Shown here: piece after piece, positions 2,185 to 9,631 of the stretch
Position numbering within the stretch: position 1 is the stretch's first letter
Layout of the letters: the number at the start of each line of letters is the position of its first letter
IMG/VR virus record: IMGVR_UViG_2737471845_000027
DNA from: a virus
Taxonomy: Duplodnaviria; Heunggongvirae; Uroviricota; Caudoviricetes
Direction: 5' to 3' (one strand)
DNA: 9,631 nt
Notes under the pieces: generated by a model
What the model saw: the letters and a program-made list of their open reading frames with translations, nothing else
Told to the model about the DNA's origin: nothing
The model's database searches: none
Made by a program: the position numbers and the translations under genes

Positions 2185-2719
2185 ATTAATAACTCTCTAC
2201 TGTAAGGGTATTAAAATGCTATCACAAACTCTCGCTGTAGGGGTATAGCCGAGACCACCGAGCCTGAAGTGGTAAAAAGACAGGCACACAACACGAAAGC
2301 GCACGGCGAGGCTGTTAGTTCATAAATGGTCTGTCGTTAAATTTACGTCGACCGTGCGCTTCCGGTTGTGGCACTCCGCGAAATGGCGCGGTGGTAAGTA
2401 TGGCGGGGTTATTCATTCCCAGTTGAGGACACCGGGTTGTCAGGTTGACCATACGCTTAAGTGACAACCCCGCTGCAACGCCCTCTGTTATCAATTTTTT
2501 GGTGACGTTTGGCGGTATCAGTTTTACTCCGTGACTGCCCTGCCGCCCCTTTTTAAAGTGAATTTTGTGATGTGGTGAATGCGGCTAAGCGCACGCGGAA
2601 CAGTTAAAAGCATCAGTGTTATGGGTGGATTATCCGGCGTTAATTGTTAACTGGTTAACGTCACCTGGAGGCACCAGGCACCGCATCAACAAAGTTCATT
2701 TGTAAAAATGGAGATAATT
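2185..2719. promoter_or_regulatory. 535-bp non-coding region between divergent sieB and kilR (pL-equivalent position)
   Basis: No ORF longer than about 33 codons on either strand. GC-rich core at roughly 2280..2600. 9-bp inverted repeat gggttgtca (2434..2442) / tgacaaccc (2462..2470). Weak stem then ccccttttt at 2511..2554. Candidate sieB promoter on the minus strand near 2200..2240. Confidence 0.4.
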
Positions 2720-7079: not shown

Positions 7080-7286
7080 ATGACAAAAACTTTGAGATAT
7101 GACGATGTTAAACCATGTCCGTTTTGTGGTTGTCCATCAGTAACGGTGAAAGACATTTCAGGATATTACCGGGCAAAATGCAACGGATGCGAATCCCGAA
7201 CTGGCTATGGTGGAAGTGAAAAAGAAGCGCTCGAAAGATGGAATAAACGAACCACTGAAAATATTAATGGAGGCGTTCATGTATAA
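7080..7286 (+). CDS. ralR: RalR / Lar (restriction alleviation protein; type I toxin DNase)
   Basis: Internal ATG of track ORF 7053..7286. 68-aa product MTKTLRYDDVKPCPFCGCPSVTVKDISGYYRAKCNGCESRTGYGG... with two Cys pairs, recognised as RalR. Confidence 0.85.
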   Translation: MTKTLRYDDVKPCPFCGCPSVTVKDISGYYRAKCNGCESRTGYGGSEKEALERWNKRTTENINGGVHV

Positions 7287-7467
7287 AATTACCGCTACAA
7301 TTGAAAAGGAAGGTGGCACTCCTACTAACTGGACAAGATATTCAAAATCTAAACTAACGAAATCAGAATGCGAAAAAATGCTCTCAGGTAAAAAAGAAGC
7401 AGGCGTTTCCAGAGAGCAGAAAGTAAAACTGATAAATTTTAATTGCGAGAAACTTCTGTCCTCGTGA
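7279..7467 (+). CDS. ydaC: YdaC-like small protein
   Basis: Track ORF 7207..7467; GGAGG at 7270..7274 is 4 nt before ATG 7279 (MYKITATIEKEGGTPTNWTRYSKSK...). Overlaps the ralR stop by 8 nt. Start could instead be ATG 7267. Confidence 0.65.
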   Translation: MYKITATIEKEGGTPTNWTRYSKSKLTKSECEKMLSGKKEAGVSREQKVKLINFNCEKLLSS

Positions 7468-7573
7468 GTTGCATTATATCCAAATTAGAACTTCATAGCT
7501 GATTATTAAAAATCAATCACGTCCGCCAGTATTCTGTATATTTACTGGCGGTCATATCGTAAGAGGTATGGCA

Positions 7574-7855
7574 ATGAATCTTGTGACACTCAAAACGTGG
7601 GGGAAACTCAGATATCCGGATAATCCACCATCAATATCAACGCTGAGACGATGGGCAAGGAATGGAAACATTTATCCTGCACCTGAACTACACGGGAGGA
7701 GTTACAGGGTGGTTCCGGAGGCTTTCTATATCAACCCAAATAAGGTTGATACCGATATAACACACCATCAGCCTAATGGGCGACAAGGGAGAGACAGTCC
7801 GTTACTGGAGAAGTTAAAACATGCAGCGGAAAAAATACGATCCCAATTTGCCTAA
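7574..7855 (+). CDS. xis: Excisionase (lambda Xis-like)
   Basis: Track ORF 7568..7855; AAGAGG at 7561..7566 favours the second ATG (7574). Motif ISTLRRWARNGNIYPAPELHGRSYRVVPEAF resembles lambda Xis. The 3' end overlaps the int start, as in lambda. Confidence 0.75.
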   Translation: MNLVTLKTWGKLRYPDNPPSISTLRRWARNGNIYPAPELHGRSYRVVPEAFYINPNKVDTDITHHQPNGRQGRDSPLLEKLKHAAEKIRSQFA

Positions 7856-8897
7856 AAACTTAACATATCGAAGGAGGGACAAAGCATATTACTGGCGCAA
7901 CCCTCTGACGAAAGAAGAATTTACACTAGGTAAAATTTCAAGAAGAGATGCAGTAGCGCAGGCAATTGAAGCAAATCATTATATATACAAAAACTACTCT
8001 CCTGCTGCCTTAATTGAAAAGCTTAAAGGGTTCGACTCATTTACTATGGCAGACTGGATTGAACGTTACAAAACGATTCTTATAAGGAGAAAAGTGTCCA
8101 GAAATACTTATAAAATCCGGGTAAATCAACTGGAGACAATAAAAGAAAAATTGGGAGAGATTTTACTGACAGAAATAACCACTCGCCATATTGCCGAGTT
8201 TCTTGATTTGTGGATTGAAGGAGGGAAAAACACAATGGCAGGATCAATGCGTTCTGTGTTGTCTGATATGTTTCGCGAGGCCATTGTTGAAGGACGTATA
8301 TCTCAAAATCCAGTCACGCCAACAAGAGCACCGAAAATAGTAGTTACAAGAGAACGACTGAAACTAAAGACATACAACTGCATCAGGGAGGCAGCAGATC
8401 AACTTCCGGCATGGTTCCCATTAGCTATGGATTTAGCCCTTGTAACAGGACAACGTCGCGAAGACATAACGAATATGCGGTTCAGTGATATTTATGATGA
8501 CCGTCTCCACATCAGGCAAATTAAGACAGGAATGATGATTGCTATCCCTCTGTCACTCAGCCTTCCTGTCGCTGGTCTACGGCTTGGTACAGTAGTTGAA
8601 CGATGCCGCCTGGTAAGCCGGGGAGATTATCTAATCAGTGCCGGGATTAGAAAAAACAGCCCTGACGGCAGCATTCACCCGGATGGCCTGACAAAAAAAT
8701 TTGTCGCAGCCAGAAAATTAACAGGTATCCAGTTCAGTGAAAACCCACCAACTTTTCACGAGATCAGAAGTCTGGCTGGACGATTGTACAAAGAAACATG
8801 TGGAGAAGAATTTGCCCAGCGCCTACTTGGTCACACATCGGAGAAGACAACAAAAATGTATCTTGATGAGCGAGAAAAAACGTACTTACTGCTCTGA
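7821..8897 (+). CDS. int: Tyrosine site-specific integrase (lambda Int family)
   Basis: 358 aa. Conserved blocks [12 protein letters not shown] (Arg), [10 protein letters not shown] (His-x-x-Arg) and [13 protein letters not shown] (His and catalytic Tyr). Last gene before the host junction. Confidence 0.9.
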
Positions 8898-8962
8898 TTT
8901 TAACGTAAATGGATTGTTAAATGTATATTGGTTGTGATATAACCAAAAAAGACCGGAATACA

Positions 8963-8994
8963 GAAATTCGAGTAAATTTCGGGGAATTTCGGGG
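8963..8994 (+). repeat. Three tandem 10-11-bp direct repeats; candidate Int arm-type (P'-like) sites
   Basis: gaaattcgag (8963..8972), aatttcgggg (8975..8984), aatttcgggg (8985..8994). Located between int and the predicted core, as P'1-P'3 are in lambda attP. Confidence 0.5.
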
Positions 8995-9002
8995 AGACGC
9001 TT

Positions 9003-9015
9003 GCAACTAATTGAT
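9003..9015 (-). promoter_or_regulatory. IHF-consensus site (H'-like) between the arm repeats and the predicted core
   Basis: Minus-strand sequence aATCAAttagTTg matches WATCAANNNNTTR exactly. Confidence 0.4.
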
Positions 9016-9028
9016 TTTAAATACAATT

Positions 9029-9131
9029 AAAAAGAGACCGAATACGATTCCTGTATTCGGTCCAGGGAAATGGCTCTTGGGAGAGAGCCGTGCGCTAAAA
9101 GTTGGCATTAATGCAGGCTTAGTTGCCTTGC
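9029..9131 (-). ncRNA. sdsR: SdsR (RyeB) sigma-S-dependent small RNA
   Basis: Minus strand reads GCAAGGCAACTAAGCCTGCATTAATGCCAACTTTTAGCGCACGGCTCTCTCCCAAGAGCCATTTCCCTGGACCGAATACAGGAATCGTATTCGGTCTCTTTTT, which I recognise as SdsR. 3' terminator hairpin spans 9036..9062, followed by a T-run. Confidence 0.8.
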
Positions 9132-9134
9132 CCT

Positions 9135-9145
9135 TTAAGAATAGA
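9135..9145 (-). promoter_or_regulatory. Sigma-S-type extended -10 element for sdsR
   Basis: Minus strand TCTATTCTTAA, close to the sigma-S -10 consensus TCTATACTTAA, ending 4 nt before the SdsR 5' end. Confidence 0.55.
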
Positions 9146-9218
9146 TGACGACGCCAGGTTTTCCAGTTTGCGTGCAAAATGGTCAATAAAAAGCGTGGTG
9201 GTCATCAGCTGAAATGTT

Positions 9219-9260
9219 AAAAACCGCCCGTTCTGGTGAAAGAACTGAGGCGGTTTTTTT
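9219..9260. terminator. Bidirectional rho-independent terminator (yebY on the minus strand; plus-strand transcripts)
   Basis: Two-tier hairpin ccgcc/ggcgg plus gttct/agaac, with an A-run at 9219..9223 and a T-run at 9254..9260. Lies 30 nt beyond the yebY stop. Confidence 0.75.
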
Positions 9261-9289
9261 ATTGGAAATCAAAAGGCTATTTTAGGTAA

Positions 9290-9631
9290 TTAACAGAGTT
9301 TTTCAGCTCGTTCTATAAACGGTGCCAGACTCATTTTTTCGCCGGGATTGTTAGGATCATCAATCTGAATCACCGAAATGGGTTGGGCTTTAGTCTTCCC
9401 ACTGGCAACTTCCTTTTGTGCGATATCGTTTAAAGGATACTGCACGAGGGTACTTGGGTTAATGGCATACAAAGCATTACCCGGTCTGCAAGTCAGCATC
9501 ACCTCTTCGCGATTAAACGCCCATTTGTCTTTACCCACTTCAAAACGACTGACGGTAATCACCTGCGGTGCAGCCAGCGCCGCTGCAGAACTGGTGAGTA
9601 ACAGAAACGTCAGAATACTTTTTTTCATCAT
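9290..9631 (-). CDS. yebY: YebY-like secreted protein with Sec signal peptide (host chromosomal gene)
   Basis: 113-aa ORF. N-terminus [22 protein letters not shown] is a signal peptide with an AxA cleavage motif. Sequence recognised as YebY. Start codon sits at the window edge, so RBS and promoter are off-window. Confidence 0.85.

Follow-up and report, generated by a model that had tools for sequence, protein, structure and literature searches.

The stretch of DNA analysed here (the window; 9,631 nucleotides of viral record IMGVR_UViG_2737471845_000027) forms the right-hand end of a Rac-like lambdoid prophage of ~41 kb that is inserted between pphA and yebY, as judged from the near-identical lysogen Escherichia coli R1, which is 99.9% identical to the window over 7800-9631. 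The R1 prophage encodes RacR, KilR, RecE, Bet/Exo, RalR, Xis and Int together with lysis, terminase and tail genes. Its backbone is Rac-like (RacR, KilR, RecE), yet its insertion site is sdsR and not the one that Rac occupies in K-12. Rfam searches of the window also recovered the RalA antitoxin RNA beside ralR (7285-7463, minus strand, 218 bits) and a DicF-like sRNA (2497-2548, plus strand, 72 bits), the 5' end of which is overlapped by an exact IHF consensus at 2489-2501. ARAGORN found no tRNA or tmRNA gene in the window.

The recombination genes are of the lambda type. The int gene (7821..8897, plus strand) encodes a lambda-family heterobivalent tyrosine integrase of 358 aa with the Pfam domains Arm-DNA-bind_1, Phage_int_M and Phage_integrase. 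The N-terminal arm-binding domain (PF09003, residues 3-61) scores 28.1 bits against a cut-off of 22 and matches the structure of the lambda Int N-domain (1KJK, E 3.9e-4), and the full-length protein aligns to lambda Int (PDB 5J0N/1Z1B/1Z1G) with an E-value of 1.5e-72. In the alignment to 5J0N the catalytic R, K, H-x-x-R, H and Y are all conserved; the motifs VTGQRR, IKTG, FHEIR, LLGH and KMYLD align to lambda catalytic residues, which we take to be R212, K235, H308/R311, H333 and Y342. Identity is ~41% to HK022 Int and ~39% to HK97-type Ints. In O26:H11 strain 11368 (L006 2330-2420), a one-base deletion just 5' of the int stop (tactactgctctg, compared with tacttactgctctga) lengthens the annotated open reading frame to 371 aa. 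Overlapping the int start is the gene for Xis (7568..7855, plus strand), an excisionase or recombination directionality factor that is similar to lambda Exc (PF07825 Exc, E 6.5e-14; phrog_629 excisionase) and whose homologues carry the excisionase annotation in R1 and O26.

Host DNA begins a short distance beyond int. The sRNA gene sdsR (ryeB; 9029..9128) is complete on the minus strand, where positions 9128..9029 match model positions 1-100 of 100 of Rfam SdsR_RyeB (RF00111) at 116.4 bits. On the plus strand, SraC/RyeA (RF00101) matches 9025-9169 at 178.9 bits; the first four bases of this match are phage DNA, and the ryeA (sraC) body is placed at 9029..9169. The host gene yebY follows at 9290..9631 (minus strand; open reading frame list, and annotation in K-12, R1 and O26). 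The first-pass annotation had assigned 9036..9062 to the SdsR 3' hairpin, and the inverted repeat, the Rfam SdsR match and a terminator scan agree on this Rho-independent terminator (minus strand), which has arms at 9036-9045 and 9053-9062 (10 bp, 100% complementary) around a 7-nt loop.

Position of the attachment core

From the order of motifs between int and sdsR, the first-pass annotation had predicted a lambda-like attachment junction with its integration core in the terminal stem of the sRNA, and had suggested aligning the two prophage junctions with an unoccupied locus. The core was mapped in this way, by comparing the empty K-12 locus, both junctions of the lysogen R1 and an intact attP from a free-phage record (PP818812.1). 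It should be noted that the far junction is that of R1, since the far end of the window's own genome lies outside the window. This three-way alignment places the core at 9028..9059, where attB, attP and both junctions share the block T-AAAAAGAGACCGAAYACGATTCCTGTWTTCG; the consensus across attB and the junctions is T-AAAAAGAGACCGAA[Y]ACGATTCCTGT[W]TTCG.

Several comparisons define the two edges of this block. When 5,426 complete E. coli genomes were searched with BLAST, alignments of empty loci to the window began at 9028 and ran rightwards, and alignments to the pphA-side junction ended at TTCG. The R1 pphA-side junction is common with the window over 9028-9059 and then diverges into phage DNA. 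To the left of the core the window holds phage DNA, where K-12 holds the ryeA promoter region. The free-phage record contains an uninterrupted attP that runs from the int stop through a P' arm like window 8898-9027 and the core AAAAAAAGACCGAATACGATTCCTGTTTTCG into an R1-type P arm, in a module with 96% DNA identity and 98% Int identity to that of the window. Two outcomes that would have contradicted the predicted position were looked for. A core directly after the int stop is ruled out by the uninterrupted attP of PP818812.1, and host DNA spanning 8900-9030 is ruled out because empty loci match only from 9028. The core covers SdsR positions ~70-100 and is present at both ends of the R1 prophage, with the SdsR model still matched in full in the window. 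In the arrangement that we propose, attP would read P'-AAAAA(G/A)AGACCGAATACGATTCCTGTTTTCG-P.

The record PP818812.1 (L004) is named 'Actinobacillus phage vB_Apl-pPE4' and attributed to Actinobacillus pleuropneumoniae, but its attP core corresponds to the sdsR terminator of enterobacteria. That attribution seems doubtful, and the record may derive from an induced prophage of E. coli or another enterobacterium.

Predicted arm-type repeats and IHF site

Between the int stop and the core lie three tandem repeats on the plus strand at 8963..8993: GAAATTCGAG (8963-8972), AAATTTCGGG (8974-8983) and GAATTTCGGG (8984-8993). These putative Int sites would be the equivalents of P'3-P'2-P'1. Although a general repeat search of the window missed this 10-nt tandem repeat, a pattern search confirmed it: RAAWTTCGRG occurs three times in the 9.6-kb window, always at 8963-8993, where 0.32 occurrences are expected, and none of 200 shuffled sequences reached three. 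The repeats had been noticed from the sequence alone at 8963..8994; they are present as described, one base shorter at the right end. Nearer the core, an exact match (AATCAATTAGTTG) to the IHF consensus WATCAANNNNTTR lies on the minus strand at 9004..9016, a predicted equivalent of H'. This match, too, had been recognised correctly on that strand, at coordinates one base off (9003..9015). The order of int, repeats, IHF site and hairpin is borne out.

To evaluate conservation, 37 distinct P' arms were compared, lying beside Int homologues of 42-100% identity in E. coli, Salmonella, Citrobacter, Enterobacter, Kluyvera, Trabulsiella, Brenneria and other genera. We would like to emphasize that these arms are interrelated, so that the counts given here are not independent events. 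Counted from the first base of GACC, the tandem ATTTCGxx repeats occur at -70/-59/-49. Their final two bases differ from arm to arm (CGAG, CGGG, CGGA or CGTG), and the variant is largely common to the copies within an arm. In one arm repeat of O26:H11 11368, the CGGG of the window is replaced by CGAG. Further copies are found in the P arm of 19 distinct attP sites with the strand unchanged, at +135/+145 and +156, and are counted as two sites, giving an attP layout of three P' and two P sites over ~250 bp. In 22 of the 37 arms the interval separating the repeats from the core contains an exact IHF consensus, compared with 0.2 after shuffling, and in 16 of those 22 its position and strand are the same as in the window. 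Conserved blocks stand amid poorly conserved spacers throughout the P' arm, namely TGATATAAC (8935-8943), GACCGGAATA (8951-8960), the repeats and the IHF core. The most distal of these, TGATATAAC (8935..8943, plus strand), was identified by column conservation, with 80-90% column identity against 10-50% in the spacers of 36 distinct P' arms. Conserved blocks within diverged spacers fit the prediction of functional sites, at which Int and IHF presumably bind.

An alternative explanation is that neither the repeats nor the IHF consensus serves in recombination, and that Int uses the core alone. The motifs would then be chance features of AT-rich DNA or signals of another kind, such as sites for Xis binding, regulatory elements in the int 3'-UTR or a promoter driving the displaced ryeA body. 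In its favour, the arm-site and IHF-site roles are assigned from sequence, and an exact IHF consensus is not rare in AT-rich DNA: the window contains three where 0.59 are expected, which makes one site alone weak evidence. There is also a weak promoter-like match at 8900-8929. As a phage-borne ryeA promoter this match was rejected, being at chance level (one found, 0.9 expected) and not conserved. More generally, Int has the lambda arm-binding domain, which needs arm sites, and the motif recurs at fixed distances and on the same strand in both arms across Int identities of 47-99%, with its variant common within an arm and with the blocks kept while the spacers diverge. We consider it very improbable, on these grounds, that Int dispenses with the arms. 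The analogy with lambda attP drawn in the first-pass annotation is upheld by the full-length homology to lambda Int and by the conserved arm-type and IHF sites.

Crossover interval, chimeric terminator and core-like half-site

The attB of E. coli and the phage attP have different bases at two or three positions of the core, and this natural variation provides markers for the exchange. At positions 9043 and 9055, attP has T and T, the K-12 attB has C and A, the window (int side) has T and A, and the R1 pphA side has C and T. Because the window has the phage-type T at 9043 and the host-type A at 9055, the exchange took place within 9044..9054, an interval that consists of the 7-nt loop GATTCCT (9046-9052) and two base pairs on each side. 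The crossover is thus resolved to 11 bp, within a core whose geometry is a perfect pair of 10-bp inverted repeats flanking a 7-bp spacer. The part of the core at 9028..9043, from which the U-tail of SdsR and most of the stem's 3' half are transcribed, is phage-derived by these markers, and the sequence from 9055 onward is host-derived.

The terminator of SdsR in the lysogen is therefore a phage/host chimera: its last 16-28 nt come from the phage and the hairpin is restored. A phage origin of the distal 3' end of SdsR had been suggested from the sequence alone, and the markers bear this out. Since attP carries the left arm and the A-run, the int-side product is a complete sdsR, and integration rebuilds an intact gene because attP brings its own copy of the terminator 3' half and the U-tail. 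The chimeric terminator folds at -15.8 kcal/mol, the same value as the K-12 version. The expectation that a U-A pair in place of U-G would strengthen the terminator was accordingly rejected. At the R1 pphA-side junction (L003 16071-16108), an orphan 3' half of the sdsR terminator is left that shows no fold (-4.9 kcal/mol, z = 0.59).

The marker at 9043 was followed through junctions and attP sites from loci recovered in IMG/VR and GTDB. T is found in all 22 attP sites and all 21 int-side junctions, and all 39 E. coli pphA-side junctions combine C at this position with a phage-type right half. Among empty E. coli attB sites, ~99% have C: about 3,145 loci are exact matches to the K-12 C form and no more than 57 correspond to the T form, and in one sampled locus from the common one-mismatch class the SNP lies outside the core. 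In those at most 57 of 5,192 empty attB sites (hits H102-H141), the T converts a U-G terminator pair to U-A; it could be an ordinary polymorphism or a trace of past phage recombination. T at 9043 alone is consequently not an absolute phage marker, being shared by these empty E. coli genomes.

These polymorphic sites raise the question of whether T at 9043 is simply a host polymorphism, with the crossover farther left and the phage contributing the U-tail or nothing. Besides the at most 57 empty E. coli genomes with T, this reading could draw on other enterobacterial genera, where T is in the majority at the position (84 T, 26 C). Against it, the R1 pphA-side junction has C, which indicates that the attB had C before integration; the 39 E. 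coli pphA-side junctions are uniformly C and every int-side junction and attP is T; and the int side of O26:H11 11368 carries two phage-type left markers, the second of which (A for G at window 9034) lies further left, together with the host A on the right. A crossover to the left of 9043 is very improbable given this pattern, and we retain the interval 9044-9054.

A further element of the P' arm is a core-like half-site, or pseudo-core, AAAAAAGACCGGAATACA (8945..8962, plus strand; repeats D2 and I2), whose sequence on this strand is similar to that of the left core half, AAAAGAGACCGAATAC. It has counterparts in PP818812.1 (L004 1126-1143) and in a further locus (L005 ~826-842), and its GACCG(G)AATA is conserved, together with the neighbouring TGATATAAC block, down to ~47% Int identity. 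The presence of the pseudo-core in a free-phage attP means that it is phage DNA and not a host remnant. It may represent an extra core-type site for Int. The idea that 8945-8962 is instead the true junction, with 8963-9027 left by an older element as a tandem att scar, could appeal to this resemblance and to the occurrence of tandem occupancy in two other loci (L031 and L143, two cores each), but it is scarcely credible, as the free-phage attP in PP818812.1 rules it out by holding 8898-9027 uninterrupted (pseudo-core, repeats and IHF site, then core and P arm), the same layout recurs in 19 distinct attP sites, the repeats at 8963-8993 match the P-arm repeats of the same phage, and 8898-9027 is absent from every empty locus.

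Taken together, these results make it very probable that 8898-9062 is the integrase-proximal junction (attL in lambda nomenclature, B-O-P' in the opposite orientation) of a Rac-like lambdoid prophage whose lambda-family Int used the sdsR terminator as attB. Mechanistically, Int would recombine the ~250-bp attP with this attB, the 10-bp arms of the terminator stem acting as inverted core-type Int sites (C-O-C' and B-O-B' geometry). The loop GATTCCT would be the 7-bp overlap in which strands are exchanged, as the 10-bp inverted repeats around a 7-bp spacer suggest, and the exact cleavage positions are likewise predicted from this symmetry. The ATTTCGRG repeats would serve as arm-type sites for the Int N-terminal domain, and IHF at 9004-9016 would bend the P' arm so that arm-bound Int reaches the core.

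Prevalence, the host locus and known systems

The right part of the window is matched by all 5,426 complete E. coli genomes and the match crosses int in only 228. The attB is split in 234 of the 5,426 and intact in 5,192. Int lies next to yebY in 228 genomes and the P-arm junction lies next to pphA in 228; only six of the 234 genomes with a split attB lack the int of the window. Among 85 species-representative enterobacterial loci with enough flank, an Int homologue is found beside the core in 16 and tandem arm-like repeats in 23, and Salmonella relatives with Ints 72-74% identical to that of the window have the core unchanged. Thus, an attachment site can now be given for a prophage family in ~4% of complete E. 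coli genomes, including O26:H11 11368. In many enterobacterial genera, the SdsR terminator is the target of one Int lineage whose attP is lambda-like. With the site known, prophage boundaries can be drawn exactly and attB/attP PCR assays designed. Two loci carry more than one core. L031 has two cores ~6.3 kb apart, which looks like tandem or composite elements. L143 (Citrobacter meridianamericanus) has cores at 1402 and 5716, and the ~4.3-kb segment between a pphA-side-type and an int-side-type junction suggests a small remnant or satellite at the sdsR site.

Integration would also affect the host genes on the far side of the core. SdsR and RyeA have been described as a toxin/antitoxin pair in E. 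coli. In this species the start of RyeA lies on the pphA side, ~40 nt past the 3' end of SdsR, and most pphA transcription comes from read-through that begins at the sdsR promoter (PMC6610125). The ryeA 5' region was placed on the pphA side with the K-12 sequence; the ryeA promoter and the first ~40 nt remain at the pphA-side junction and are absent left of 9028 in the window. Because RyeA starts on the pphA side, the ryeA promoter stays with pphA at the far junction after integration. Both would thereby be moved ~41 kb from sdsR, and the ryeA body would end up downstream of int, cut off from its own promoter. Between xis-int and the ryeA body, no plus-strand terminator was found. At the R1 far junction, the ryeA promoter points into the P arm of the phage, in antisense orientation to the tail-fibre region.

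In lysogens, sdsR would accordingly be chimeric, ryeA would lack its promoter and pphA would no longer be coupled to the sdsR promoter, and this altered locus could change SdsR-dependent stress and porin regulation. These regulatory effects are deduced from the arrangement of the locus. If rewiring did occur, antisense control of SdsR and sdsR-driven pphA expression would depend on prophage transcription. We regard it as rather unlikely that lysogeny rewires SdsR/RyeA in this manner, or else that the GACCGGAATA half-site is an extra functional core-type site for Int outside the lambda paradigm.

Comparison with well-studied phages shows close parallels to lambda and HK022. The attP of these phages is organised as P1-H1-P2-X-F-H2-C-O-C'-H'-P'1-P'2-P'3, with three P' and two P arm sites in lambda. 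The element described here has homologous Int and Xis, three predicted arm sites and an IHF consensus between int and core, two sites in the other arm, an attP of ~250 bp, and inverted repeats around a 7-bp core spacer. The lambda arm-site sequence differs from ATTTCGRG, and the P arm of the present prophage does not obviously follow lambda in how its IHF-like and arm sites are ordered. Its target is an sRNA terminator, unlike the intergenic gal-bio attB of lambda. A second difference is the conserved core-like half-site distal to the P' repeats, for which we know of no equivalent in lambda.

A second parallel is with elements that integrate at the 3' ends of tRNA and tmRNA genes, for example P4, P22 and HP1, and with the sublocation classes of Williams (2002), as cited in PMC3603311. 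As in those elements, which use tRNA anticodon or T-loops in this way, the site is the conserved stem-loop of an RNA gene in which the 7-nt loop forms a symmetric core, and a replacement 3' end keeps the gene intact. Unlike in those elements, the target is the Rho-independent terminator of a regulatory sRNA, and since the locus is bidirectional, the antisense ryeA is not restored. The element therefore functions like the tRNA/tmRNA-integrating class and is not a member of it.

The closest precedents concern the same terminator. Salmonella phage PhiW104 attaches in the last 23 bp of ryeB (Balbontin 2008, J Bacteriol 190:4075, as related in PMC7380047), a study by Balbontin, Figueroa-Bossi, Casadesus and Bossi according to the accounts in PMC7380047, PMC3333887 and PMC3603311, where the ryeB terminator is described as a recurrent insertion hot spot. 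In the summary of that work in PMC7380047, PhiW104 integration in Salmonella lowered RyeA and raised RyeB. As far as these accounts describe it, PhiW104 resembles the window prophage in its target, the last ~23 bp of ryeB, and in replacing the 5' part of ryeA; Salmonella-type attP sites share the core AAAAAGAGACCGAATACGATTCCTGT with the window prophage. The window prophage differs from PhiW104 in its E. coli host, in attB/attP core differences that serve as crossover markers and in a Rac-like backbone (RacR, KilR, RecE, RalR/RalA). In Citrobacter freundii, the prophage Cfr111.52.RyeB has been catalogued under the TIGER/Islander 'RyeB' site class (PMC10111431, supplementary files 5 and 6; 2023). 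The attL/attR block given for it in those files, ACAGGAATCGTATTCGGTCTCTTTTTAT, is the reverse complement of window 9027-9054 except for one flanking base, and the flank printed there shows the arm repeats gtccgaaatttgtccgaattc and a pseudo-core, aatattcggtc, as in the window. The catalogue supplies a site label, and its searchable text makes no mention of the arm architecture, the IHF site or the crossover interval. Literature searches on pphA/yebY/prophage and on sdsR/attB turned up no open paper that describes an E. coli example, this arm architecture or where the crossover lies. The site itself is not new, as integration into an sRNA terminator at sdsR was published in 2008, and the present results leave the current understanding of such integration unchanged while placing the E. 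coli prophage beside PhiW104 and Cfr111.52.RyeB as a further user of this terminator.
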